Origin: Patescibacteria group bacterium
Lineage (GTDB): Bacteria > Patescibacteriota > Minisyncoccia > Phycocordibacterales > Phycocordibacteraceae
Reading direction: 5' to 3'
Length of the DNA: 64,000 nt
Assembly: GCA_004322365.1 (NCBI GenBank)
Contig: SCTS01000006.1
Span: forward strand, 160,756 to 224,755
Both the position numbers and the translations under genes were made by a program. Each line of letters opens with the position of its first letter. The stretch's first letter is position 1. This document shows positions 2,996-48,982 of this stretch, in pieces. The notes beneath the pieces are model-generated. The model made no database searches, had not been told where the DNA came from, and saw only the letters and a program-made list of their open reading frames with translations.

Positions 2996-3487
2996 GTGAT
3001 ACCATTGTTATGTATGAACAATATTGAGACAGATTCTAAGGATACGGGTGTTCAATCTGGACAAATGGGAAAAGTAAAAATAATTGTCGCACACTACTAC
3101 GGTGATCCGCTTCGTAGAATTTTTGTTGCCATTGCAGTAATCTCTGTTCTGGTTATTCCTCTCTGGGGAAACCTTCTTCCTTTTGGTACATTCTTTGAAC
3201 TTTTAAGTGCGCTCCTTCTCGTACTCCTCGCTGGCCTTACAAACCCCCACAGCCCAACTGTAGCGGTAATTAATACCCTAGTGTCTGCTACGGGAGCCCT
3301 ACTCCTTGAAATGGCAGCGATTGACTTCTATCATTCACAGTCGTTCTTACTATTTGCCATCCGAGAAACCACAGCAATCCTCTTTCTCTTTGCACTCTAC
3401 TTTGCTGTAAAAACACTCCGCGCCATGCTTTTGAAACAAGTTGGACACCTACCAGAGCACGGAGAGTTTGACGACGTAAAGAAGTAA
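2996..3487 (+). CDS. Hypothetical small integral membrane protein
   Basis: 163 aa with several hydrophobic helices. No recognisable motif. One of the few plus-strand ORFs in this region. Confidence 0.4.
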   Translation: MIPLLCMNNIETDSKDTGVQSGQMGKVKIIVAHYYGDPLRRIFVAIAVISVLVIPLWGNLLPFGTFFELLSALLLVLLAGLTNPHSPTVAVINTLVSATGALLLEMAAIDFYHSQSFLLFAIRETTAILFLFALYFAVKTLRAMLLKQVGHLPEHGEFDDVKK

Positions 3488-3507: not shown

Positions 3508-4176
3508 TTATCGTGTAAGTACGAGTGAATAACGAATTGCATCAAATTCTTTCAATAGCGCCTGCTTATCGAACGCCTCTACTGTGCCGGGGCTATAGTT
3601 GCCAATGTTCGTAGAATGGAAAAAATAGCGCACTGCCGTGCAAGGCACACTTCCTGAAATCACGTACACGATTTCTTCATAAAGATTACCTGCGCCAGCA
3701 CCAGCAGTCTTTGTCATTAAGTAGGTGGTACCTTTTTCTTTTAATGTCTTCGACACCAAACCCTCTTCAACAAAACTGGTGCCCGTACATGGCGCTACAC
3801 GAGGAAGTATCTCTACAGAAACACCGGTATCGATATGCGAGAGATTGTTTCCCTCTGTGTATGACTTAGGAATTTTAAACTGCACCCCTTTACTGCCTTG
3901 ACGCGAACCAAGTTCCGTACGTACGGATGAAGAATCAGCGATATATTCTGGTGGATATAAAATAGAAATACCAAGTTTTGTAGAATCAAATTCACGCCAA
4001 CCTTCAGGAACACTTGCGTTTGCAACAAGTGTCGAGTCATCAAAAAATAAGCTGAGAGTTGAAGGGTGATAAAAAACCCACAGAGACAGGAGGCATGCAA
4101 TCGCCAGAACGATTACCAACCACTGCATGACACTGCCCCGAACCACCCTCCTGTTCATACCTTCAGAATAGAACAT
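3508..4176 (-). CDS. Hypothetical membrane-anchored protein
   Basis: 222 aa with an N-terminal TM helix (WLVIVLAIACLLSLWVF) and no known motif. Confidence 0.45.
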   Translation of the reverse strand: MFYSEGMNRRVVRGSVMQWLVIVLAIACLLSLWVFYHPSTLSLFFDDSTLVANASVPEGWREFDSTKLGISILYPPEYIADSSSVRTELGSRQGSKGVQFKIPKSYTEGNNLSHIDTGVSVEILPRVAPCTGTSFVEEGLVSKTLKEKGTTYLMTKTAGAGAGNLYEEIVYVISGSVPCTAVRYFFHSTNIGNYSPGTVEAFDKQALLKEFDAIRYSLVLTR

Positions 4177-6412: not shown

Positions 6413-8098
6413 CTATTGCTTAAAAAATAGACGGGCAATACGAAGATCTTCATACGAGTACATACCATTAAAACGCTCAAATATCGGAGAAAGTCGTTCG
6501 ACTCCTTGGAGCTCAAATACCTCGTGAATAACCGGCAAGGCCTCTATAATATTCACTGAAAAAATGTTTTGTATATCATTCACTTCACATAAACCCTGCG
6601 CTATTATTTTTTCAACATGGTCAATAAGTGTCCCAACTTTTAATGATCGTATCTTGGCAATATCAGAGATGGAGTGACCTTCCTGTATCAGGATAAGTGT
6701 TTTAGAAAGTGTACTGGATTTTTCTTTTTTGCTCTGAATATTCTTCTCTGATTCAAATGTTCCTCCGCATGCACGAATAAAATTTTCTTCCATACCCGCA
6801 TGCTCTGCATCACTCATCTCCTCAAAAACTGCCCGTGCGTCCTCAGACTTAATACGAAATTGTGCATCCTGTTCAGCCACTCGAGGGTGCACCAAGAGTG
6901 CCCGCTCGCTCCACCCTAGAAGATGAAGCCCTCGGAGGGTTCGTACCCTTGAGAGAGCGACATACCCATGCCCATGCTCGAATACTTGCGAGAGGTCAAT
7001 TGCAGCAGCGTCCATACTCATACCTTGGCTCTTGTGTATGGTCATGGCCCATGCAAGTCGAAGTGGCACCTGATTAATCCGTGCACGCACCTTACCGTTC
7101 TGTTCAACAGCCCACTCCATAGGCTCCACAGTAAAGACTCGCCCATCTTTCGTTTTTACAATTGGATATGAATTCTCTTCATTAAACCCGATAACAACCC
7201 CAAGCGTGCCATTTGCAAATCCGATACTTGGATTGTTCTTCGTACACATCACCACTGCATCCTTCTTGAGAAAAAGTTTTTCGGGAGAGAGGCATCCCCG
7301 TTTGAGACCGAGAATGAGATTATCACTCCCCTGTGCAGTCATCACAAATTCTGTTGGCTGACCCTTCAGTTTAGCGAGTGCATCCGCGTTAATGCGATCT
7401 ACATCCATATTGTGTGCAAAAAGTCGTGGAATTTTATGTGAAACCTCCTCCGGAGATACTGCTCTATCTTGAAAACACAACAGAGTATCCTCATCGGCGA
7501 CACCCGACCTAATAGAAGCGAGAGCAGAAAGGAATACTTCATCTTCTTGTCTATGCTGTTCAGTGAGGTAACAAACAATTGGATTGACGGCCTTCCAGAC
7601 CGCAGACTCAAAAGCAAATGACGCTCGTGAAGCCCCTCGTTTAGAAACTGGTGGGAGTTGGAAAAAATCACCAACAAATATTACTTGTATTCCACCAAAT
7701 ACTTCTTGACTACGGTGTACCTCTCGCACCACGGCCTCTGCTAAAGCTAAGGTTTCTCCAGACAGCATTGAGACCTCATCGATAATGAGTATGCGTGATT
7801 TTGTTATTCGCCTTGCCACATGCTCTTTCCCTGCAATGGCATCAACATCCTGCTCTGATAGATGCTCTGCAATCCCTATACCACTCCAAGAGTGTAATGT
7901 AATGCCTCCAATGTGTGTCGCTGCAATACCTGTTGATGCGGTGATGGCAGGTTCAATTCCTTTACCTCGAAGCCATGCTACATATTCATTTACGGTGTGG
8001 GTCTTTCCACTTCCAGGTTCACCTGTCAAAAAAACATTAGCGCCCGTCTTCAAAATCGTTAGTGCATCATTCTGCGTCATCGACACAGGGTACCGCAA
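6413..8098 (-). CDS. PIF1/RecD-family ATP-dependent DNA helicase with C-terminal HTH domain
   Basis: 561 aa. Walker A motif GEPGSGKT, an AAA_30/UvrD_C-like layout (ILIIDEVSM, QLPPV, VALSRVR) and a C-terminal helix-turn-helix-like tail. Confidence 0.8.
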   Translation of the reverse strand: MRYPVSMTQNDALTILKTGANVFLTGEPGSGKTHTVNEYVAWLRGKGIEPAITASTGIAATHIGGITLHSWSGIGIAEHLSEQDVDAIAGKEHVARRITKSRILIIDEVSMLSGETLALAEAVVREVHRSQEVFGGIQVIFVGDFFQLPPVSKRGASRASFAFESAVWKAVNPIVCYLTEQHRQEDEVFLSALASIRSGVADEDTLLCFQDRAVSPEEVSHKIPRLFAHNMDVDRINADALAKLKGQPTEFVMTAQGSDNLILGLKRGCLSPEKLFLKKDAVVMCTKNNPSIGFANGTLGVVIGFNEENSYPIVKTKDGRVFTVEPMEWAVEQNGKVRARINQVPLRLAWAMTIHKSQGMSMDAAAIDLSQVFEHGHGYVALSRVRTLRGLHLLGWSERALLVHPRVAEQDAQFRIKSEDARAVFEEMSDAEHAGMEENFIRACGGTFESEKNIQSKKEKSSTLSKTLILIQEGHSISDIAKIRSLKVGTLIDHVEKIIAQGLCEVNDIQNIFSVNIIEALPVIHEVFELQGVERLSPIFERFNGMYSYEDLRIARLFFKQ

Positions 8099-8140: not shown

Positions 8141-8399
8141 TCATTTCTCAATATTCCTGTGTATAAGTGTAATTTTTTCTTCTCGAGTTAATCTTTTTAG
8201 TTCTGCTTCACGAGCACGAGCCTGTGCAAAGCTTGTGCATATTTCTGTGTATTTCAGCACAACAGGTCTCCTAATTTTTGTATAGTGGGCACCCTGCTGA
8301 GGCATGATTATGCTGATGGACTCGTTTTTCCAAATTAACAGTAGATCCAATATAAAGGCTCGTATCAGCGCACTCTAAAATATAAACAAAGTGAGACAT
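8141..8399 (-). pseudogene. GIY-YIG nuclease family gene (UPF0213/YhbQ-like) disrupted by a frameshift
   Basis: The N-terminal half (MSHFVYILECADTSLYIGSTVNLEKRVHQHN..., ATG at 8399) stops at a TAG at 8271-8273. The C-terminal half (..AHYTKIRRPVVLKYTEICTSFAQARAREAELKRLTREEKITLI) is in another frame (ORF 8141-8350). Confidence 0.6.
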
Positions 8400-8518: not shown

Positions 8519-9067
8519 TTAATATTGTACTCGGATGGCACGCTCAAGACGGAGTGGGTTCGTCGTAATGCATGTGTTGTAACCTTGCGAGGCAATAACT
8601 GTTTCGGTTGGATAAAAAGTTTTAGTAACCGTCACGGTAATGCAAGGATTGGCCACTCCTCCGTCAAGTGGGAAAGAAAACACGCTGGTGTATGTTGGAC
8701 GGAGTACCGTGCCCCCTGAGGTGCGCGTTACATCTGCCAAACCACCTCCACAAGCAACCTGTGTGAGCGCTGATGTTGTTGCAAATGCATTCTGTTTTGT
8801 ATCCCAATAGAGAGCGCACTCGATTCCGGTATCAGCTGCAAAAAAAGCAAATTGTGACTCACGACCTGATGACGAAAGGATAATTTCTTTTGAGAGAATA
8901 TTAAAAATTGCCGAACCAATAGCAATGAGTATGCTACTAATCAATACTGCGAGCAGAAGAGTGAATCCCCGTGAGCTACGAGAAAAGGCTTTTTGAGTTA
9001 ATGAACTCGCACCTGGAACCTGGAACCTGGAACCTATTTTTTCTTTCATACTCATGGTCCTGCCCAA
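8519..9067 (-). CDS. Minor pilin / pseudopilin with prepilin-type N-terminal segment
   Basis: 182 aa. Long leader, then G|FTLLLAVLISSILIAIG, a hydrophobic helix typical of type IV pilin N-termini. The leader contains the (CCTGGAA)3 heptamer array. Confidence 0.6.
   Translation of the reverse strand: MGRTMSMKEKIGSRFQVPGASSLTQKAFSRSSRGFTLLLAVLISSILIAIGSAIFNILSKEIILSSSGRESQFAFFAADTGIECALYWDTKQNAFATTSALTQVACGGGLADVTRTSGGTVLRPTYTSVFSFPLDGGVANPCITVTVTKTFYPTETVIASQGYNTCITTNPLRLERAIRVQY
9012..9035. repeat. Heptanucleotide tandem repeat (CCTGGAA) x3.4 inside the minor-pilin leader
   Basis: Sequence acctggaacctggaacctggaacct. Encodes ..SRFQVPG.. of ORF 8519-9067. Confidence 0.9.
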
Positions 9068-9618
9068 TTAAAAAGATGCTCAGTAACCTGAAACGACCTG
9101 CTAATTCCAACCGATACCCAAGAGATTCTCACCTTCACTATTACTTCGTCAACACTACCTGCAACGGGCGTAATAGAAAGAACTCTAGTAAAGGCTGACG
9201 CAGGCCCGCTCGTTGCATCCTGATTGTATAATTTTGTTGCACTACTTATATATATGGGAGGACAGGTACTCAGAACACCGCATGCACTGTGGGTAAAACG
9301 AGGAAAATCAACCACACATGATGCCCCAACGCAGTCACCAAGATTGGTAAGCCACGATGCGTTAGCAAGATAGTTTTGATCACGCTGGGCTCTCACATAT
9401 TCCACCGCTTCCTGCGCAAGATAGAAAGCAGTCACTTGATCCCGTGCGTAATATGCGAGACGAAGAGATTGTGCAGCAATTGAGAGCGGCCCGACAAGCG
9501 AAACCAATAACACCGTAATCGCCACAAAGGTCTCAATCAAAGTAAACGCGCGAATTACTTTCGCTTTTCTAGAACCTGAAAGCTGAAACCTGAAAGCTGA
9601 AAGCTGGTTGTTTTTCAT
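9052..9618 (-). CDS. Minor pilin / pseudopilin (prepilin-type N-terminal cleavage/methylation domain)
   Basis: 188 aa with RAFTLIETFVAITVLLV (Glu at +5). The leader codons are built from five heptamer repeats. Confidence 0.7.
   Translation of the reverse strand: MKNNQLSAFRFQLSGSRKAKVIRAFTLIETFVAITVLLVSLVGPLSIAAQSLRLAYYARDQVTAFYLAQEAVEYVRAQRDQNYLANASWLTNLGDCVGASCVVDFPRFTHSACGVLSTCPPIYISSATKLYNQDATSGPASAFTRVLSITPVAGSVDEVIVKVRISWVSVGISRSFQVTEHLFNWAGP
9573..9607. repeat. Heptanucleotide tandem repeat (AACCTGA/AAGCTGA) x5 inside the minor-pilin leader
   Basis: Sequence aacctgaaagctgaaacctgaaagctgaaagctgg. Encodes ..QLSAFRFQLSG.. of ORF 9052-9618. Confidence 0.9.
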
Positions 9619-9620
9619 AT

Positions 9621-10310
9621 TTATATATCGAGGACTCTTTGAACAACGCTTGCCTGCACGGTAAATGTAGTTGTGCCCCCCGGAACTACCGCTGAACCCT
9701 TAATACGCATAAGAACGCGGGGCTGTATGCCATCTCCTTTCGCTGAGCCAACAACATAAAAATCGAAGCTATCAATTGAGACTTCGGGTGCAGTAATCGC
9801 AATCCAACTACCGTTAGCACCTCCACGCAAAGAACGCTCAAGTTGTGTACCGTTTAACCGATAGACAACTTGGTCATTCGCGTCAGTCAAATTGCCTGTT
9901 GACGACTCGAACGCAAGAAGACGAGCTCCACCCAAAGCGCAATCTTGTGGATTTGCAATTGTTGAAGACGGTGGAGGAGATGGGGGTGTTGTGGCAGAAG
10001 TAACGCAATTATATAAGGTGCCTACACGAATGGATCGTGACATACCTTCGACTGCTGCACTCAAGTTGTTCATGACTGAGTGGATTGCCTGCGCACGGTG
10101 GTTTGTAGCCACAAGTGACAATAACCCGCCAACCCCAACCATCATAACAATGGCGAATATTGTTACCGCAACCATCATCTCAATCAGAGTGAATCCGCGC
10201 GCTGTTTCCTTTCCACCTGTGCGGAGCAAAGTACCTATACGAAAGACTGAGACTTGGGCAAACGCCCCGGAGTGGTCTTTCGTATAGGTACTTTGTGTAG
10301 TTTTTTTCAT
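9621..10310 (-). CDS. Minor pilin / pseudopilin (prepilin-type N-terminal domain)
   Basis: 229 aa with RGFTLIEMMVAVTIFAIV. Confidence 0.7.
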   Translation of the reverse strand: MKKTTQSTYTKDHSGAFAQVSVFRIGTLLRTGGKETARGFTLIEMMVAVTIFAIVMMVGVGGLLSLVATNHRAQAIHSVMNNLSAAVEGMSRSIRVGTLYNCVTSATTPPSPPPSSTIANPQDCALGGARLLAFESSTGNLTDANDQVVYRLNGTQLERSLRGGANGSWIAITAPEVSIDSFDFYVVGSAKGDGIQPRVLMRIKGSAVVPGGTTTFTVQASVVQRVLDI

Positions 10311-10972
10311 GGATTTGTTACTGAAATCTGACCGGTTGAGGCAACTTTAACCGTGCGCGTTTCACCTGATGGAGATGTCACTACTATTTTGCCACTTGAA
10401 TACACAGTAGAAGTATTGGAAGAAAATAAAGCGTCTGGATCAGGTCTAAAAAAGACAACATCTAGATGATCAATCCCACTCGGAGAACATTCTTGAACTC
10501 CGCTTGCCGTGATGCCACAAAAACTTTTTACGGTGTGACCACGACTAATTGAAAATGTCTGCACAATTGAATCAATTCCACTGTCGTAGCGTTTATTTGC
10601 ATTTGTATCAACAAAAAATGTATATGAGGATGCGCCAGCAAAACGGAGGCCATATCCAACCTGGAAATTACTACCGTATTGTTTTACAGACAAACCATAC
10701 ACCTGTGCCTCACGAATCGATAGCGCAATATCATACGCAAGACTTCCAAGAAGAACGGAGCTATTAAAACGAGAGTGGTTTGCAAGAACCACGAGTGAAA
10801 TGATAGAAAAAATACCCATCACCACAAGAAGCTCAATGAGTGTTAAGCCACGAACGACGAAAGATTTTTTAATCCTCCCTGAAAGCTGAGTGTTCCCTTC
10901 GGAACCGACGAAGCGTCGCCTAGAAGCTGGAAGCTGGTTGTTCATTGGAACCATAATAGATTGGCGAGCCAC
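10307..10972 (-). CDS. Minor pilin / pseudopilin (prepilin-type N-terminal domain)
   Basis: RGLTLIELLVVMGIFSI. The real start is probably the ATG at 10945 (MNNQLPAS...), whose ATGA overlaps the pilD stop. The leader contains a (GAAGCTG)2 heptamer array and a 24-nt repeated motif. Confidence 0.7.
   Translation of the reverse strand: MARQSIMVPMNNQLPASRRRFVGSEGNTQLSGRIKKSFVVRGLTLIELLVVMGIFSIISLVVLANHSRFNSSVLLGSLAYDIALSIREAQVYGLSVKQYGSNFQVGYGLRFAGASSYTFFVDTNANKRYDSGIDSIVQTFSISRGHTVKSFCGITASGVQECSPSGIDHLDVVFFRPDPDALFSSNTSTVYSSGKIVVTSPSGETRTVKVASTGQISVTNP
10922..10937. repeat. Heptanucleotide tandem repeat (GAAGCTG) x2 plus adjacent copy 1 of the 24-nt motif CGGAnCCGACGAAGCGTCGCCTA
   Basis: Repeat at 10922-10937 and motif at about 10899-10922 (22 of 24 nt identical to copy 2). 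Both lie inside the leader coding sequence of ORF 10307-10972. The motif recurs at 41341-41363. Confidence 0.85.
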
Positions 10973-11787
10973 GACCCAAGTGAGAGCGGTGAAAGCGTCG
11001 TGAAGAGAGCGAGGCCAATGCCAAAAGCAAGAAATGGCACGAACGGCAACTCTGTTTTCATGGTAACCCGGGCACCGTGAGGCAACAATCTTTTTTTTGA
11101 ATGAATAGAGGATAAAAGAAAAATTATCAAGTAAACAATTGTTGCAGACCAGACTCCAAACATAACTGATTCAATACCTCGAAACAGTCCGAGTAAGAGC
11201 CCGGCCGCACCAACAACATATGCGTCACCGACGCCCATACCTCGCCCACGAGTAACAAGAACAATACTGAAAAAACCACCAAACAAGACGGCACCGCCAA
11301 TAAGGGAATCAACAAGTGGAAAAAACGAATTGCTAAACAAACTCTGTGCGATAGAAGCTACAAGCGCTGAACCAGCAAGCATATACACAAAAGGCATAGG
11401 CACTAATGTGTGTCGTGTGTCGTATGCAACTAAAGCTACCAAAGATGCGAGAAAAACAAGGAGCATGGCGAATGCCAGAATTGACCAGAGCGATAAAACA
11501 GGTGGCATTATAAAAAATGCCACTAAAAAAAGAAGTCCGACTATACCCTCAATCAATGGATATTGAATCGAAAGCGCGCTTCCACATGTGCGACAACGGC
11601 CTGATAGCGCCACATACGAAAAAATAGGGATTAGGTCATACCAAGAGATTGGCATGTCGCATGCCATACAACACGAACGCGGACGAGAATGTTCGATGAA
11701 GCCAAAGCGAAACACTTGAACATTAACAAAGCTTCCAACACAGAGTCCGATACCGAACACAAAAAGCGGGAGAAGTACTTCAAGCAT
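10942..11787 (-). CDS. pilD: Prepilin peptidase PilD (A24 family)
   Basis: 281 aa polytopic membrane protein. N-terminal CxxC...CxxC zinc motif (CCMACDM...CRTCGS) and a GVGDAYV aspartyl-protease region. Confidence 0.85.
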   Translation of the reverse strand: MLEVLLPLFVFGIGLCVGSFVNVQVFRFGFIEHSRPRSCCMACDMPISWYDLIPIFSYVALSGRCRTCGSALSIQYPLIEGIVGLLFLVAFFIMPPVLSLWSILAFAMLLVFLASLVALVAYDTRHTLVPMPFVYMLAGSALVASIAQSLFSNSFFPLVDSLIGGAVLFGGFFSIVLVTRGRGMGVGDAYVVGAAGLLLGLFRGIESVMFGVWSATIVYLIIFLLSSIHSKKRLLPHGARVTMKTELPFVPFLAFGIGLALFTTLSPLSLGSWLANLLWFQ

Positions 11788-11873
11788 ACAGAGAAGTATA
11801 CCTCGTGAGATAACCCGCTAACACGAATTAAAAAATCCCCCAATTGGGGGATTTTTTAAAAAGGAAAAACTCT

Positions 11874-12326
11874 CTACGGCTTTACATCAAAGATTGGATC
11901 CGTACCTGCAAAGTCGGCACTGGAGCCAGTACAAATGGTACCCGCAGCTGCGTCGATGTCTCCAGTAAGAGCCTGGTTGGTAGTCTCTTCGAAGGTTGCA
12001 CCGAGGTGGTAGCTCGTACAAGAAGCGCCAGTACCAAGCGCTGCGTATCTGTAGGCTGCATTGCCTACAGGGTCAGTAGGAACAACACCGATGTAGGTAG
12101 GAGCAAGGCCTGCAAGTGTCGTTGGGTATGCTGAAGAGTTTGAGTCAGAGTAAAGAGCGAGTGCGATCTGTAGTTGTTTGATGTCAGAGACACGGCGTGC
12201 ATCGCGTGATTTCAAACGAGCAGTGTTCAGAGATGCCAACACGACCGATGAGAGGATACCAATGATGGCAATAACGACGAGGAGTTCGATGAGGGTGAAA
12301 CCTCGTTTTGTTGAAGTAAGGTTCAT
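11874..12326 (-). CDS. pilA: Major type IV pilin
   Basis: 150 aa with KRGFTLIELLVVIAIIGILSSVVLASL, ARDARRVSDIKQLQIALALY and C-terminal Cys residues. Confidence 0.8.
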   Translation of the reverse strand: MNLTSTKRGFTLIELLVVIAIIGILSSVVLASLNTARLKSRDARRVSDIKQLQIALALYSDSNSSAYPTTLAGLAPTYIGVVPTDPVGNAAYRYAALGTGASCTSYHLGATFEETTNQALTGDIDAAAGTICTGSSADFAGTDPIFDVKP

Positions 12327-18344: not shown

Positions 18345-18428
18345 AGCTGCCAGCTTTCAGCTGCCAGCTTTCAGTGGAAATTACTAAATTCTTAAAGCTG
18401 AAACCTGACAGCCGACACCTGAAAGCTA
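18345..18428. repeat. Heptamer-based repeat block (AGCTGCC/AGCTTTC alternating, then GCTGAAA/CCTGACA/CCTGAAA) in the pilM-pilN intergenic region
   Basis: Sequence agctgccagctttcagctgccagctttcag...aagctgaaacctgacagccgacacctgaaagct. Forms a 114-nt spacer inside the pilus operon. Confidence 0.8.
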
Positions 18429-20350: not shown

Positions 20351-20375
20351 ATCCCGACAGGTGTCGGGATTTTTC
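20351..20375 (+). terminator. Rho-independent terminator after comFC
   Basis: Hairpin atcccgacaggtgtcgggat followed by ttttcc. Confidence 0.6.
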
Positions 20376-20422
20376 CTAGAACCTAGAACCTAGAACCTAG
20401 AACCTAGAACCTAGAACCTGAA
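20375..20422. repeat. Heptanucleotide tandem repeat (CCTAGAA) x6 plus a CCTGAAT variant
   Basis: Perfect 7-mer array between the convergent genes comFC and ORF 20423-21262. Confidence 0.9.
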
Positions 20423-21262
20423 TTATTGTGCTCCAGCAGATGCTTCCGTAGTCGTCGTAGTCGACGCCGCAGCTTTCATGCCCTTAAGCGCAGTAATAAT
20501 TTTGTCAGCATCCTTGCGTGCTGTCTGTAAGTCTTTCTGTGCAACTACAATTTGAGCTCGGGCATCCTTGAGTGCCTTTGTGTTTGCAGCTCTTTTTGTA
20601 GCATCACCATTATCAGGGACAAGGGTAACGATTGCGTTTACCGCTGCTTGCGCTTGCAAGCTCGCATCTGCAAGTTTTGCTTTGTACTCTTCAAAGACTA
20701 CGCGAATTGCTGTTACGTCATTTCCTGCCGTAGCTGCTGCCGCAATACGCGTTTCAAATTTTACCGCAATGAGTTGCATCGTGGTTGAAATTGTCACAAT
20801 ACGATCAGCCGCAGTAATTATCCCTCCTTGAGGAATAATGAGTGCATAGATACGGTACGAATCGGTAATGGATTTCACATCCCCCTTCAATGTTTCAAGA
20901 TCAGTATCTGCATTAATTTTAGCCTTAAGTGCATTCAGTGCATTCACTTGTGCTGTCAAAGTTCCCGCAATAGAAGCCTTGTCCGCGTCGGAAAGATTTT
21001 TCATTCCTTGTACGCGAGCGATGAGAGTATTAAGGTTTGTGACTCTTCTGTCAATTTCTTGATTTCCACGGTCCTTACCTCGCATCAATGCAACTGACTG
21101 CCCCGCTGTTGCTTTTACTTCTACTTTTGTTGCTGTAGGCGTAGTGACAGTAGCACCTGCATTTACGCTCGTAGTTACCGCCTCCTCAGCCAATGCGAAT
21201 GTTGGAGATAGAAGAATAGCGAAAGCGACAAGAGGAAGAAGTACTGGGGTTATTTTTTTCAT
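20423..21262 (-). CDS. Secreted Ala-rich coiled-coil protein, hypothetical
   Basis: 279 aa with a signal peptide, long Ala/Lys/Thr-rich helical segments and a C-terminal T-rich tail. Confidence 0.5.
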   Translation of the reverse strand: MKKITPVLLPLVAFAILLSPTFALAEEAVTTSVNAGATVTTPTATKVEVKATAGQSVALMRGKDRGNQEIDRRVTNLNTLIARVQGMKNLSDADKASIAGTLTAQVNALNALKAKINADTDLETLKGDVKSITDSYRIYALIIPQGGIITAADRIVTISTTMQLIAVKFETRIAAAATAGNDVTAIRVVFEEYKAKLADASLQAQAAVNAIVTLVPDNGDATKRAANTKALKDARAQIVVAQKDLQTARKDADKIITALKGMKAAASTTTTTEASAGAQ

Positions 21263-35501: not shown

Positions 35502-35951
35502 ATGAAAGCACTGGTAGAAAACAAGAAAGCGCGTCTTGAATATGAAATCCTCGAATCCTACGAGGCGGGGCTTCAATTGCTTGGATTAGAAGTTAAATCC
35601 CTCCGTGCCGGCAAGGCATCGCTCGCAGGGTCGCGCGTTGTAGTTCGTGGTGGTGAGGCGTTTCTTTTAGGTGTCACCATTTCTCCTTACCAAGTGGGCA
35701 ACACAGCAAAAAGCTACGACCCTGAGCGCACCAGAAGACTCCTCATGAGCAAAAAGGAAATTGCCGAGCTTGCCGTAAAAGAAGGCCAGAAGGGTTTGAC
35801 AATTATACCTATTATGGTGTATAATAAGAATAAGAAATTGAAGGTACAAGTTGCCGTAGTGCGCCACAAGGGCAAACATGACAAGCGTGATACCCTCAAA
35901 GGCCGTGACGCAAAGCGAGAGATAGAACGCACTTTGAAAACTGAATATTAA
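35502..35951 (+). CDS. smpB: SsrA-binding protein SmpB
   Basis: 149 aa with KKARLEYEILESYEAG and a C-terminal basic tail. Confidence 0.9.
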   Translation: MKALVENKKARLEYEILESYEAGLQLLGLEVKSLRAGKASLAGSRVVVRGGEAFLLGVTISPYQVGNTAKSYDPERTRRLLMSKKEIAELAVKEGQKGLTIIPIMVYNKNKKLKVQVAVVRHKGKHDKRDTLKGRDAKREIERTLKTEY

Positions 35952-36000: not shown

Positions 36001-36392
36001 GGGGGTGACTGGTTTCGACGGAGAATTTCCTCTGTTGCGCGCAAGACGGTGAATGCTGGAGATCACCTTAAACCTCGAGCACTGAAACGTGCAAACGCTT
36101 CTATAAAGAGCCCTTACAATTTCGCTTTTGCGACTGCGTAAGTTCCCTCTTCCGTCCTCGCTTCGGCCGGGACGGCGCTAGGCTTCTGATGTCTAATAGG
36201 AAGACTCTAGTGCCATAACATCAGACTCTATTCTTCTTTACTGCTCGTAGAAAAGAATGAAATTGAAGAGCTCGGATAGGTGTCATTTTGTTCGTTCTCT
36301 ACCCACCTGTCTTAAACCTTGAAACGAACTATGTCTTGTAGAAACGCTTCGGAGACCCTCTCTGTACGGGAGTTCGACTCTCCCCACCTCCA
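36001..36392 (+). ncRNA. ssrA: tmRNA (ssrA)
   Basis: 5' GGGGGTGACTGGTTTCGACGG and 3' GGGAGTTCGACTCTCCCCACCTCCA form a tRNA-like domain. Internal ORF GCA AAC GCT ... GCG TAA predicts the tag ANASIKSPYNFAFATA. Lies immediately downstream of smpB. Confidence 0.8.
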
Positions 36393-36440
36393 CAAATAAA
36401 AATTACCTGCGTGCGCAGGTAATTTTTATTTGTGGAGGTG
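36383..36440 (+). terminator. Exceptionally long perfect hairpin (about 27 bp) overlapping the tmRNA 3' end
   Basis: Sequence ccacctccacaaataaaaattacctgcg tg cgcaggtaatttttatttgtggaggtgg. Confidence 0.6.
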
Positions 36441-40322: not shown

Positions 40323-40565
40323 AGACGCACAGCGCGTAGCGAGTTTACCAATAGGGTCACTGACGGAGTATTAACCTTAGAGCCGAAGCTCCAGGTGGGT
40401 GCTCGCAACATCGTGTGTATCGGATTCTCCGGAGAGATTCGCCAGCACAGAGTGATATAAAGCTCCCTAAAGTTTTTCAACGAGGTTAATACTCCGTCAC
40501 CAACCCCATTAAAAGCGTACCACGCTTTTAAGCTTTCAGTTCTGGAATTCAATACTCTTCCCTCT

Positions 40566-40600
40566 GGAAGCTGGAAGCTGGAAGCTGGAAGCTGGAAGCT
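40566..40600. repeat. Heptanucleotide tandem repeat (GGAAGCT) x5 abutting the ndk stop codon
   Basis: Sequence ggaagctggaagctggaagctggaagctggaagct. The last unit overlaps the stop codon of ndk (cta at 40599-40601). Confidence 0.9.
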
Positions 40601-41210
40601 ACTCCATTATTCCATCCAAGTTCACATCGTAAAGAATCTGTTCCTGCACAATACGATACTTCAAAATCTCTTCAGGCTTAAACCACACAGCAATTTCGCG
40701 TGATGCTTCTTCAGGACTTTCAGAACAATGAACGAGGTTTCTAACAGCACGACTCTGTACCGATGAGTGGTCGTACGAGTCCACAGTGTAGTCACCGCGG
40801 ATAGTACCCACATCCGATGTCTTTGGTTCTGTGGCACCTACAAGCTTCTTCACAACGGCTACTGATTCATTCCCTTCAACAACCATCATGAGTACAGGAC
40901 CTGCGGTCATGAATTTCACTATTGAATCTATTATTTCTTTACCATACCCAAGCGCATCCTTCTCTATTGGCAAGTTATGAGTTGTTCGGTCATTCAATAT
41001 TCGAGTTCCTTTCTCAAGAAACCACTTTTCGTCCTTGTTGTAATGACGGACAAGTTGGTCCTCTGTCGCAAGTCCAAATTTAAACGCAACAAATTTCAAC
41101 CCTGTTCTCTCTATACGCTTCATTATCTCTCCGATAAGAGAACGCTGTACTGCGTCAGGCTTCAATATAATAAGCGTACGCTCATTTTCAAATTGTGCAT
41201 TTGTATTCAT
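40599..41210 (-). CDS. ndk: Nucleoside diphosphate kinase (long form with insertions)
   Basis: 203 aa with TLIILKPDAVQR and a catalytic His region. Confidence 0.8.
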   Translation of the reverse strand: MNTNAQFENERTLIILKPDAVQRSLIGEIMKRIERTGLKFVAFKFGLATEDQLVRHYNKDEKWFLEKGTRILNDRTTHNLPIEKDALGYGKEIIDSIVKFMTAGPVLMMVVEGNESVAVVKKLVGATEPKTSDVGTIRGDYTVDSYDHSSVQSRAVRNLVHCSESPEEASREIAVWFKPEEILKYRIVQEQILYDVNLDGIME

Positions 41211-41264
41211 TGAGGCGACTATACCACTCTACGGCGCGAAGCGCCACAGAGCAGGTGCTAGGTA

Positions 41265-41330
41265 TTAGGTTATAGGTGCTAGCTTTTCTGATTCTGAATT
41301 TAAAGCTAGAACCTAGCACCTATAACCTAA
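41265..41330. repeat. 18-bp inverted repeat built from degenerate heptamer units, with a 30-nt loop
   Basis: Arms ttaggttataggtgctag and ctagcacctataacctaa. The right arm reads as gctagaa cctagca cctataa cctaaat. Lies between the stop of ORF 41361-44246 and the ndk start. Confidence 0.8.
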
Positions 41331-41360
41331 ATGATCCCTGCGGATCCGACGAAGCGTCGC

Positions 41361-44246
41361 CTACGGCTTTTGGTTCTCTCGCATCTGATTATACTTCTGG
41401 TGGATATCAGCCTCCACAGCTTCGCGGGCTCGGCCGTAGCGTTGATACGAAATCTGCTTCAATGCATCAATGTTCAAGAAGTCGCCAGGGGTAAACGGAA
41501 TAGTCTCAATAGTAAAACCAGGGGTAGGCTTTCCTCCAGCAAGAAGCTTTAAATATGAATGGAAGTTGTCAATTTTTAGGAAGTCGGAAACCTCAAAGCC
41601 TGGAAACTGTTTCGCAATATACTCAGCATCATCGGGGCCTACACGAAACACTGCCATGGTGCCAACGTTACCAAATACTGAATCCTTAATTTTTGGAAGG
41701 AGCTGAGAAATATACTGGTGTGCCATCGTCATAGAGAGACGGAATTTGCGTGCTTCTGAGAGGATTGTGGAAATAGTATCGGTCGTAATATTTTGGAACT
41801 CGTCAATGTAGAGATAGAAGTTCGGAGGATTCAAATGCAAATACTCCGTACGCGCAAGTGCGGTCATCATAATTTTGCCCACAATCACAAGACCAATCAA
41901 GTTTGCGTTTACATCACCCAGTCGGCCTTTAGACAGGTTTACAAGAAGGATTTTCTTGTTGTCCATAATATCTTTGAAATTAAAAGCGGAGCGTTGCTGT
42001 CCGATGATCGGACGCATAATTTCGTTCGCAATGAAGATATCGAATTTTGATGTGATGTACGGCACCACATTGCGCAAATCTCCTTCTCCACGCACATTTT
42101 CTGCAATATCTTCCCAGAAGTGCGTTACCACGGGATTTTTACAGCGAGACAACTTCAATGCGCGGAATTCATCGTCAGCCAAAACACGGGAAATATCCAT
42201 CAAGGTCGAGCCAGTATCAGGATCTTCAAGCACGAGCATTGTGGCATTACGGAAGTACTGCTCAAAGATAGGACCGAAGGCTTCCGGCACATCGCCGTAG
42301 AGTTTCTTAAAAATTTTAAACATCTCATCCACCACGAATGTTTTTTGCTCTGGAAAGCGTGGATCATACTCAAGCATGTTGAGTCCCATGGGGCGTGCAG
42401 TATAGGCAGGATCAAAATAAATAAGATCATCAATGCGGTCTTTGGGAATACGGGAAAGAATCTCCAATACATCCACACCGTGCGGGTCAATGAAACACAC
42501 CCCTTCCCCATTCTCAATGTCCTGAATGATCATATTCTTCAGGAAGTTCGTCTTACCAGTACCGGTTTGTCCAATGGTATACATGTGGCGCAGACGGTCA
42601 TCTGGAGTGAAATGAATTGGTGTTGCAATATTTGAGTAACGATTAATGCCGATGACAATGCCTTTCTCAGGAAGCCCTGGTGGTGCAGGAGCGAGCTTAG
42701 CACTTGCAGTTTTTGCTTCACGAGATGCTGTACCTCCTGCAATAGTGAGATGAAAAATAGTTGAGAGCTCTGCCAAATTCATCGGCATGAGTGGAATCTT
42801 ATGCATCAAAGGTGTTGGGGCAGCCTTGCGTGTCCATTCAAGCCACAGCTGATAGAAAAATCCTTCATGTGCTTGGCGATCAAACATGCGGAAGATGAAC
42901 AGACGGAGAAACTCCCGCAATTCCTTTCTACCTTTTATATGCTTAAACCGAAGGCGGTTTGCTTTCGCATCTTCATACTGCCCAAAAGTATTTTCAAGTT
43001 CCGTCAAAATTGCCATTGCCCTCTCTTTGGTGCGAGCAGACGCAACAATACGCAAATTCACTCCCACAATGACACTCTTGAGCTTTTTTGACACTGCGTC
43101 AGCTGCAAAAGAATCAATATTCTTACTATCATCCTTCTTTTTTTCTTCAGAGCTTTCCAAAAAACTAGTGAAGCCTTTGTTCAATCCCTGAAAAAATCGA
43201 CGCATTGGTGAGTAATGCTCCATATACATATTCTTTCTGAATATGTCATTTGCAGAACCTTTACCTTTGTTGAGCTCATCCAACACATAACGAATACGCT
43301 TGGAATGGTAATCACCTGCGGGAGCAACGGTAATTTGAAGCGCAGCCCCCTCACCTTCTTTAGTGATTTTTGAAAGTGCTGCGAGCGTCACATTCATAGG
43401 GTCGTGACTAAACTCTTCTGATGTCTTCAAAGGAATTGGTGGCGGGCGCTGGTAGTAGGCGGACGCCGCAACAGTCACACCAAATTGGTTAAAAAGATTG
43501 TAGTCATCTTTTTTTTCAACAATACGTGCACGGGGAAACATGGCAAAAATCTGCTTTTCAAATGTTTCACGTTTTGCTCGAGGGACTGACAAATAAAAGA
43601 CTGCTTCCTCTTTAGTGTGCGAAACAGCAATTTCCATTGTGAAATGCTGGAGGTGAATCTTTTTGCGCTTGTGCCAATCTTTCAAGAAAATTGTATCGGG
43701 GAGAGCAACAAAAGGAATCATACTCAAATAAAACTGCTCCATCTGCATGCAAACATCCTTAAGAGACCCTCCTGGTTTCCCTGGGGCAGCTTCAGGTACG
43801 GCTATATCCAAGAGAACAAAATCAAGAGCCACAGCGAGCGGATCGTTAGCGCTCAGCCCTGGAATTGGATGTCCAGCTGTCCGGTATTGCACAAGCAGGC
43901 GATGAAAATCATCTTCGAGGTGAGGATTATCAATGCGATCAAGCTCCTTCATGACAGCCTTGAATCCTTGAGTATGCAAAATACCCAACAACTCCTCCAT
44001 GTCTTTGTCGTTCGAGTCAGGTGTAAGTTCAAGAATGATGCCCTGCTTCTGCTCTTGCTCTACCCCCTCTGGTGCCTCCGAAAGTGTAGGGAGAACAGAC
44101 GCTTCGACAGGTAAGGCCGGATCTCCTCGATGTCCCCTTCCCCCTCCACCCGAGCGCGCGGTCTCACGCAACTTCGTCAGTTGATGCTCAGGCGAAAGTT
44201 TCGCTGCTTTTGTATCAATTCCTTTATTAGGATTAAACCCTGGCAT
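41361..44246 (-). CDS. Large protein with C-terminal TraD/VirD4/HerA-FtsK-like P-loop ATPase domain and an uncharacterised roughly 540-aa N-terminal region
   Basis: 961 aa with Walker A TIGQTGTGKTNFLKN, followed by CFIDPHGVD and a Walker B-like LYIDEFQN. The N-terminal half is acidic and coiled with no known motif. Copy 2 of the 24-nt motif overlaps its stop codon. Confidence 0.6.
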   Translation of the reverse strand: MPGFNPNKGIDTKAAKLSPEHQLTKLRETARSGGGGRGHRGDPALPVEASVLPTLSEAPEGVEQEQKQGIILELTPDSNDKDMEELLGILHTQGFKAVMKELDRIDNPHLEDDFHRLLVQYRTAGHPIPGLSANDPLAVALDFVLLDIAVPEAAPGKPGGSLKDVCMQMEQFYLSMIPFVALPDTIFLKDWHKRKKIHLQHFTMEIAVSHTKEEAVFYLSVPRAKRETFEKQIFAMFPRARIVEKKDDYNLFNQFGVTVAASAYYQRPPPIPLKTSEEFSHDPMNVTLAALSKITKEGEGAALQITVAPAGDYHSKRIRYVLDELNKGKGSANDIFRKNMYMEHYSPMRRFFQGLNKGFTSFLESSEEKKKDDSKNIDSFAADAVSKKLKSVIVGVNLRIVASARTKERAMAILTELENTFGQYEDAKANRLRFKHIKGRKELREFLRLFIFRMFDRQAHEGFFYQLWLEWTRKAAPTPLMHKIPLMPMNLAELSTIFHLTIAGGTASREAKTASAKLAPAPPGLPEKGIVIGINRYSNIATPIHFTPDDRLRHMYTIGQTGTGKTNFLKNMIIQDIENGEGVCFIDPHGVDVLEILSRIPKDRIDDLIYFDPAYTARPMGLNMLEYDPRFPEQKTFVVDEMFKIFKKLYGDVPEAFGPIFEQYFRNATMLVLEDPDTGSTLMDISRVLADDEFRALKLSRCKNPVVTHFWEDIAENVRGEGDLRNVVPYITSKFDIFIANEIMRPIIGQQRSAFNFKDIMDNKKILLVNLSKGRLGDVNANLIGLVIVGKIMMTALARTEYLHLNPPNFYLYIDEFQNITTDTISTILSEARKFRLSMTMAHQYISQLLPKIKDSVFGNVGTMAVFRVGPDDAEYIAKQFPGFEVSDFLKIDNFHSYLKLLAGGKPTPGFTIETIPFTPGDFLNIDALKQISYQRYGRAREAVEADIHQKYNQMRENQKP

Positions 44247-48469: not shown

Positions 48470-48472
48470 TGT

Positions 48473-48982
48473 TTAGCTTTTAGCTTTTAGCGAAGAGACG
48501 GCTTTCTTAGAAGGCATAACCTTCCTTGAAACAGGGGCGCGGACAGCACCTCCTGCTTTCTCAATTGTAGCTCGTGCTACTTCAGAGATGAAAACATCCT
48601 CAAAAGAGAGCTTCACGGTGAGTTCACCTCGCGCAAGAACTTTTATAGGAGGAACCTTACCGGAAATGCGTCTCACAACTCCAGCCTTTACGAGCGCAAT
48701 AGGAGTAACGATATCCCCTGCCTTAAATTGTCTTGAGAGTGTATCGAAATTGACAGTAGCAAACCTAACGCGAGGCACTGCTGTGCGAGAACGGTTTCTA
48801 CCATACCCGCGTCGTTTTGGAATTTTCTTGATGATGTCTCGCCATTCTGGGCGAAATTTTGCGCCAGCGCGGGACTTCTGACCTTTAGCGCCACGACCAG
48901 ATGTCTTACCTCGTTTTCCTCCACGACCAACACGACGACTTGTCGCATTGCTCTTTGTTCTTGCCAATGTGTGAAGTTCCAT
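48473..48982 (-). CDS. rplO: 50S ribosomal protein L15
   Basis: 169 aa with a Gly/Arg-rich N-terminus. Confidence 0.9.
   Translation of the reverse strand: MELHTLARTKSNATSRRVGRGGKRGKTSGRGAKGQKSRAGAKFRPEWRDIIKKIPKRRGYGRNRSRTAVPRVRFATVNFDTLSRQFKAGDIVTPIALVKAGVVRRISGKVPPIKVLARGELTVKLSFEDVFISEVARATIEKAGGAVRAPVSRKVMPSKKAVSSLKAKS

Follow-up and report, generated by a model that had tools for sequence, protein, structure and literature searches.

Heptanucleotide repeat arrays in the leader-coding DNA of minor-pilin genes from a Patescibacteria group bacterium

The minor-pilin operon and its leader inserts

The subject of this study is a type IV pilin region on contig SCTS01000006.1 of the Patescibacteria group bacterium assembly GCA_004322365.1, where three of four minor-pilin genes carry tandem 7-nucleotide (nt) repeats in their 5' coding DNA. 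It was analysed within a stretch of 64,000 nt (the window), whose positions serve as coordinates throughout; handles beginning with L or P denote the related loci and proteins with which it was compared. All genes of the region lie on the minus strand, in the order major pilin (11874-12326, with a 9-residue leader and no repeat), a strong terminator (11828-11859), the prepilin peptidase PilD (10942-11787; peptidase A24), which would cleave off the leaders, and the minor-pilin genes 4 (10307-10954, its start overlapping the end of the PilD gene), 3 (9621-10310), 2 (9052-9618) and 1 (8519-9055). The four minor-pilin genes abut or overlap, leaving no spacers in the operon. Genes 3 and 4 bear the N-terminal methylation motif (PF07963). 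Gene 1, whose leader ends in ...SRSSRG before FTLLL, is PilX-like on account of a weak PilX_N match and of homologues named PilX in their source records, and gene 2, whose leader ends in ...KVIRA before FTLIE, is PilV-like and qualifies via homologues that carry N_methyl or are named PilV, its product being identical to TAK58740.1. These minor pilins display the hallmarks of class III signal peptides, i.e. a cleavage motif followed by a hydrophobic helix, with PilD nearby. As in other PilD-processed type IV prepilins, a short basic leader ending in G/A is followed by F/L-T-L-I/L-E, and a peptidase gene is present in the operon; here, however, insertions of repeat or hairpin DNA lengthen the leaders to 24-39 residues (and to as many as ~65 in relatives), and this extension is hypervariable.

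Tandem Repeats Finder placed period-7 arrays at 9011-9035 (3.6 copies, 100% match), 9576-9606 (4.4 copies) and 10923-10937 (2.1 copies), all read on the minus strand. The first of them, in the leader of gene 1, is a perfect array of GGTTCCA/CAGGTTC units that encodes SRFQVPG. The gene 2 array comes to five units when read as CAGSTTY (9572-9606; CAGCTTT, CAGCTTT, CAGGTTT, CAGCTTT and CAGGTTC) and encodes QLSAFRFQLSG, and the CCAGCTT units of gene 4 encode QLPAS. A single family, CAGSTTY on the coding strand, covers all three leader arrays, and CAGSTTYCAGSTTY, the pattern for two adjacent units, is found 10 times in the window where chance would give 0.01. An earlier note on this DNA had reported 7-nt repeats downstream of the start codon and ahead of the prepilin cleavage site in three minor pilins, together with the peptides that they encode, and both observations are confirmed here, the cleavage motif being G/A before F-T-L-I-E. 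That note had overlooked a leftover 1.5 units of the same family, CAGCTTTCAGG (10878-10888, minus strand), which are followed by GGGAGG in the gene 4 leader. Between this remnant and the 2.1-unit array, a 30-nt double mini-hairpin module, GGCGACGCTTCGTCGG plus TTCCGAAGGGAAC (10891-10920, minus strand), splits what is an uninterrupted 4-unit array in L002 and L003. The module combines CGACG-CTT-CGTCG with GTTCC/GATCC-tetraloop-GGAAC/GGATC and recurs beside heptamer arrays in leaders as well as in non-coding DNA; the window has another copy at 41332-41361, and L097 carries the module in its leaders of genes 4 and 2 (2630-2660 and 4050-4080 of that locus).

Each array follows the start codon and precedes the ancestral leader, short and basic, which can still be recognised. 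No ATG, GTG or TTG lies in frame between array and cleavage site in any of the three genes and, therefore, the arrays must be translated. Start codons downstream of the repeats, which the earlier note had named as a finding that would speak against its proposal, can thus be rejected; in gene 4 the ancestral start now reads ATT (ATT AAA AAA), the homologous position of L005 being ATG AAA AAA. An assembly artefact was likewise rejected, since identical arrays recur in independent assemblies.

The earlier note had also stated that the repeats are absent from the major pilin and from the fourth minor pilin. Neither the major pilin nor gene 3 has a heptamer array, but gene 3 is not free of inserts: at the same place in its leader it holds a long hairpin (10227-10295, minus strand) with a 21-bp perfect stem and a conserved apical part (fold z = -6.7). 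The apical sequence of this hairpin type is kept in five other loci; as GACCACTCCGGGGCGTTTGCCCAAGTCTCAGTC it was noted in gene 3 of the window, L002, L003, L005 and L097 and in gene 2 of L043, L004 and L007. The stems (20-22 bp) vary in sequence by genome, with perfect or near-perfect Watson-Crick pairing in most copies, and in L004 an additional structured insert lies within the hairpin loop. Another type of insert, seen on comparing P0135 with P0136 and at 3545-3668 of L005, follows a complete short leader (MK...RAF) and closes with a second RAF/RGF, so that it looks like a palindromic element inserted at the cleavage motif with partial duplication.

Reading frame and variation among relatives

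Related DNA was retrieved with the gene 2 protein, which led to 40 genome loci and 52 metagenome loci, all from Paceibacteria/Parcubacteria (Kaiserbacteria-like), and more contigs were added through exact-protein look-ups. About 100 related loci were compared in all, and the census set amounts to 689 kb from 90 sequence sources, namely the window and 89 related loci.

The earlier note had interpreted the arrays as contingency loci of the kind known in Neisseria and Haemophilus, at which slipped-strand mispairing would switch each minor pilin ON or OFF; on this interpretation, unit numbers would change at appreciable frequency within populations. The likeness is real in several respects: genes for a surface structure, the pilus, contain in their 5' coding region a tandem repeat with a unit length not divisible by three, non-triplet repeats with differing units recur at this leader position across many genomes, and a heptanucleotide tract in pglE of Neisseria meningitidis is phase-variable (PMC7157529). 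The predicted frame shift holds as well, as simulated alleles that had gained or lost one or two units and were then translated ran into a stop between codons 7 and 42 in each of the three genes, a three-unit change keeping the frame.

The alleles found in nature argue against such switching. The frame was examined in 82 distinct arrays, each no farther than 170 nt upstream of a pilin cleavage site. In 78 of them the frame is open and a start codon precedes the array in frame; of the remaining four, two are gaps in the data, caused by a run of N and by the end of a contig, and two are AT-rich tracts that precede major pilins. Not one of the 78 distinct arrays that could be judged, coming from dozens of populations, is out of frame. 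Except for the two AT-rich tracts, no leader array contains an in-frame stop codon, whereas stops occur in 28 and 30 of the 82 when the other two frames are read. TAG codons within arrays number 0 in the pilin frame versus 26 and 15 in the other two, and in-frame units carry CAG or TTG where neighbouring units have TAG (e.g. in L017 and L006). The absence of in-frame stops together with the open frames makes it clear, as far as sequence comparison can tell, that the leader arrays are selected to stay translated, with no OFF allele seen. A suspected one, P0134, in which the apparent start lies just after the array, was discarded: the gene caller had chosen a GTG, and an upstream ATG is in frame. 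In the gene 2 leader of L015 (5961-6000) an N run breaks a heptamer array of AAGAGAC units, assembly or scaffolding having failed there.

Copy number was compared among relatives, as the earlier note had proposed. The gene 1 array is identical (3.6 units) in five independent assemblies, represented by the window and four contigs of other samples, L100, L101, L102 and L103 (over 2,628 nt, contig L102, from SRR8426593, matches the window at 100% identity), and the unit count is the same in L002, L099 and P0265. The gene 4 leader is identical in four independent assemblies (window, L043, L100 and L101). The only copy-number difference seen concerns gene 2, which has five units in the window and in L002 (there in another order) and two in L094, an in-frame step of three units. 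The invariance that would have told against switching is thus found in part, for genes 1 and 4, and the departure from it in gene 2 leaves the frame intact. Slippage does seem to happen, and this counts in favour of contingency loci: besides the gene 2 difference, every gene 1 unit reads CAGGTTC in the window and CAGGTTT in L002 and L099, differing at one position (T for C, as also in P0265), and such a uniform change of units is a sign of what looks like concerted turnover. On the other hand, the tracts comprise only 2-5 units and that of gene 2 is interrupted, whereas established contingency tracts are usually longer and homogeneous. Leader arrays are also narrowly distributed in length (mode 30-31 nt, standard deviation 4.1), unlike freely slipping tracts and unlike intergenic arrays of the same period (standard deviation 8.2, up to 59 nt). 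Finally, the same repeats reside in untranslated DNA and as complementary arm pairs, as described below, and a frame switch explains neither. We consequently regard the contingency-locus interpretation as improbable, and it is equally doubtful that phase variation at a useful frequency takes place, which it could do solely as a minority phenomenon below the view of consensus assemblies.

Close relatives, with flanks 95-100% identical, differ through the replacement of whole leader cassettes, a mode of variation that also sets the arrays apart from contingency loci. The gene 2 array is absent in L003, L100, L101 and L103, and a gene-3-type hairpin cassette is found instead in L043 and L004. In L100, L101 and L103 the flanks are 95-98% identical to the window, yet there is no gene 2 insert. 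Between L043 and the window the flanks align at ~94-98%, whereas the leaders of genes 3, 2 and 1 are unalignable, those of L043 holding other cassettes, either paired heptamer arms or the gene-3-type hairpin. At least six different gene 2 leaders occur within one protein cluster at 90% identity and at least five in the gene 1 cluster, and leader sequences may be unrelated between strains with mature proteins 95-100% identical. The same cassette can occupy different pilin genes in different strains, or be present twice in one genome (L031/L080, L095, L098). Reassortment of cassettes was observed between strains with 100% identical mature proteins (L031 versus L080, L071 versus L074-L076, L098 versus P0129) and at 3390-3440 and 4550-4600 of L095. 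This sharing between minor-pilin genes suggests exchange across the conserved FTLIE-coding flank, by gene conversion or recombination. Overall, these comparisons show that the arrays turn over through slippage-like events within an array and through wholesale cassette replacement, both between strains and among the four paralogous leaders.

The same variability bears on whether the extended leader peptides could be functional themselves, for instance in delayed processing or targeting, the DNA repeats merely encoding them. The frame is always open through the inserts, as this idea would have it, but leaders are unrelated in strains with nearly or fully identical mature proteins, some strains lack any extension (in L009, L011 and L012 the elements are wholly absent and the leaders are plain, of 3-7 residues), the same DNA repeats occur untranslated, and no peptide-level motif conserved across cassettes was seen. 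We consider a function of the peptides as such very improbable.

The heptamer family at gene junctions

Outside the pilin genes, CAGSTTY/TAGSTTY heptamers occur at five sites of the window, every one at a gene end and all of them missed in the earlier note. In the non-coding spacer between pilM and pilN (18345-18427, minus strand) a direct and an inverted arm form a hairpin that ends in a T run (z = -4.3). At 20375-20419 (minus strand) 6.4 copies of TAGGTTC begin 4 nt past the stop codon of gene 20423-21262 and are followed by a terminator-like hairpin and a T run, and at 40564-40600 (minus strand) 5.3 copies of CAGCTTC begin within the TAG stop codon of gene 40599-41210, which we take to be ndk (nucleoside diphosphate kinase) from reading it by eye. 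The non-coding junction after a gene for a 961-residue protein (41253-41361, minus strand; z = -5.7) joins paired heptamer arms at 41253-41329 (TAGGTTA, TAGGTGC, TAGGTTC, TAGCTTT and their complement) to the second copy of the mini-hairpin module (41332-41361). The 961-residue protein itself (41361-44246, minus strand) shows weak matches to the type IV secretion coupling proteins TrwB/TraG/VirD4. Finally, 2.9 copies of TAGCTTT at 48472-48491, on the plus strand, overlap the stop codon of the minus-strand gene 48473-48982. Period 7 accounts for seven of the nine tandem arrays of the window with at least 2.9 copies.

This predominance extends to the whole census set, where 129 of the 152 tandem arrays with at least three copies, and 80 of the 89 with at least four, have period 7; a triplet-shuffled control yielded 11 period-7 arrays at the scan threshold, with ~2 copies each. 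The 144 period-7 arrays are far from evenly placed. Of these, 69 have a canonical pilin cleavage site within the next 160 nt downstream, and 37 more fall in the first 120 nt of an open reading frame, nearly all PilX-like leaders (RGFTLLL), so that ~100 of the 144 reside in minor-pilin leader DNA. A further 29 are intergenic and only 7 lie in the interior of open reading frames, though coding sequence makes up ~94% of the DNA. Most intergenic first arms start no more than ~8 nt after the upstream stop codon, and many of them are followed, 25-45 nt downstream, by a roughly complementary second arm that stops just short of the next start, the paired arms forming hairpins of 5-6 bp helices with 1-2 mismatches per heptamer. 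The units mostly differ in sequence among the arrays of one genome, the period being what they have in common (L006, L031, L040), whereas the arrays of the window share YAGSTTY.

The precision of this placement, closely behind a stop codon and closely ahead of the following start, raises the possibility of functional cis-elements at cistron junctions, which would lie in leader DNA for want of spacers; they could be hairpins for translational coupling or messenger stability, or YAG-N4 arrays recognised by an oligomeric protein that binds RNA (HutP-like) or DNA (in the manner of the omega/ParG heptads). The paired arms with their short helices, the strong folds at 18345-18427, at 41253-41361 and in the gene 3 leader, and the very high occupancy at minor-pilin genes all fit such a function, as do the ~4-fold enrichment of TAG and CTA in the heptamer units and the recurrence of TAGCTTC/TAGGTTC units in genomes whose gene 2 products are only 35-40% identical. 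The three leader arrays in question, in contrast, have no significant RNA fold (z = +0.4, 0.0 and -0.7). Nor do the paired arms behave as expected of transcript structures: among 28 such elements the sense strand is the more stable in 10 and the antisense in 18, a tendency opposite to the expected one (p = 0.05), with no enrichment of G-U pairs. The wide divergence of units among arrays of one genome, the lack of the elements from the three loci with plain leaders and their variable presence between close strains likewise speak against a functional role. A search of the whole window against Rfam at gathering thresholds returned only tmRNA and two tRNAs, with no match at arrays or hairpins.

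Protein binding in particular has a precedent in HutP, which recognizes XAG triplets with 4-nt spacers, and in TRAP, which binds NAG triplets (PMC2425495). All arrays of the window offer (T/C)AG every 7 nt and some stand directly before an intrinsic terminator, but here the second arms are complements rather than XAG sites, and most arrays are in coding leaders. Moreover, the AG core is not preferentially conserved: in imperfect arrays the conservation of TAG/CTA is 0.43 versus 0.37 overall (p = 0.47), and no HutP or TRAP homologue was obtained among the 28 window proteins scanned, in which TRAP and ribbon-helix-helix proteins were not specifically sought; both results speak against the HutP-like version. 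No candidate for an RNA- or heptad-binding factor is apparent among the same 28 proteins. The omega protein of pSM19035, a ribbon-helix-helix factor, binds contiguous 7-bp heptad operators. A possible resemblance lies in the contiguous 7-bp units in direct and inverted orientation; in the present case, the units vary by array and lie at gene ends, not at promoters. With these points on both sides, we hold junction cis-elements to be an unlikely source of the leader arrays, albeit a less unlikely one than contingency switching.

Short palindromic repeats between genes are familiar as repetitive extragenic palindromic (REP) sequences and REPINs, and as elements resembling miniature inverted-repeat transposable elements (MITEs) such as the Correia elements of Neisseria. 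The paired junction elements are comparable to these in size (~90-110 nt), in their two inverted arms of ~30 nt, in their location between genes, often right after stop codons, in presence/absence variation among strains and in the possible formation of transcript hairpins. They differ in that the arms are made of tandem heptamers, that copies within a genome share a period and not a sequence, and that many reside in coding leaders with an open frame. Inverted arms at gene ends are present at 18345-18427, at 41253-41329 and in 28 paired elements of the relatives, and not in the three leader arrays, whose fold z is ~0; the many near-identical copies per genome typical of REP are not seen either, mostly the period alone being shared. 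No transposase was recognized among the 28 window proteins, which were scanned in general and not with a search aimed at RAYT or any other transposase. The elements described here are related both to microsatellite-like arrays and to REP/MITE-like junction palindromes, and what makes them unusual is their strict 7-nt period, their in-frame residence in leaders and the hypervariability of the cassettes.

Some further features of the window and of the compared loci deserve mention. Directly downstream of the minor-pilin operon lie a small open reading frame resembling a GIY-YIG nuclease (8141-8350) and a PIF1-like helicase gene (6413-8098), both on the minus strand, an order kept in L100 and L101. 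Close relatives have two tandem major-pilin genes with identical N-termini (L003, 830-2090; L043, 510-1660), and contig L001, whose PilC is identical to that of the window, terminates at the pilin gene. The tmRNA (36001-36395) and SmpB (35502-35951) genes are adjacent on the plus strand, an ordinary arrangement.

Origin of the leader arrays and its implications

We favour, with a probability of roughly 60%, an interpretation in which the leader arrays are translated, in-frame passenger copies of a heptamer-periodic junction repeat present across the clade, tolerated because they lie in a leader that is cleaved off, and not demonstrable ON/OFF switches. As a rule the family occupies gene junctions, beginning a few bases after a stop codon; it stands there by itself, precedes a terminator, or consists of two arms of ~30 nt, roughly complementary, that form a hairpin. 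In an operon devoid of spacers, the only sequence-tolerant DNA after a stop codon would be the N-terminal leader extension of the next gene, which PilD is predicted to remove; the lack of spacers between the minor-pilin genes would thus explain why the element lies in the N-terminal extension of a cleavable leader. Selection would then purge all variants with a broken frame or a new stop, so that only in-frame states should be observed, that is, steps of three units and TAG replaced by CAG or TTG. The effect of the arrays on the pilin proteins is most likely modest at most, and exerted on translation.

Several considerations weigh against this interpretation. The proposal gives the repeat family neither a demonstrated function nor a mechanism of origin, and it does not account for a period of 7. 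Inserts are present in all four of the minor-pilin leaders of the window versus about 5 of ~65 other junctions, and such dense occupancy hints that the inserts have a role specific to pilins and are not simply tolerated. Most of the related loci were picked around the pilin operon, which biases upward the share of arrays found in leaders. The concerted change of the gene 1 units implies, unless gene conversion is responsible, that the lineage would have passed through other copy numbers, and assemblies are consensus sequences, blind to minority length variants. There is also a more ambitious alternative, tentative as it is and well short of even odds: the heptamer junction elements could constitute an undescribed, functional and clade-specific system, built on a factor with a 7-nt ruler or on coupling or attenuating structures. 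Exchange of its cassettes among the four leaders would tune the pilus-tip proteins through which these episymbionts touch their hosts, and slippage would now and then silence them.

A search of the literature for heptanucleotide or tandem repeats, or for pilin leaders, in Patescibacteria/Parcubacteria found nothing relevant, and apparently neither the repeat family nor insert-bearing pilin leaders have been described before. Type IV pili are central to host attachment and DNA uptake in the ultra-small Patescibacteria. A phase switch in the tip pilins, if true, would therefore have been important; the data argue against it, and they caution that repeat geometry alone is insufficient for calling contingency loci in metagenome-assembled genomes. 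What the analysis brings forward is a clade whose tandem repeats are overwhelmingly heptanucleotide repeats, found at gene junctions. The minor-pilin leaders, for their part, offer a clean natural example of repeats of a non-coding type surviving within coding DNA.

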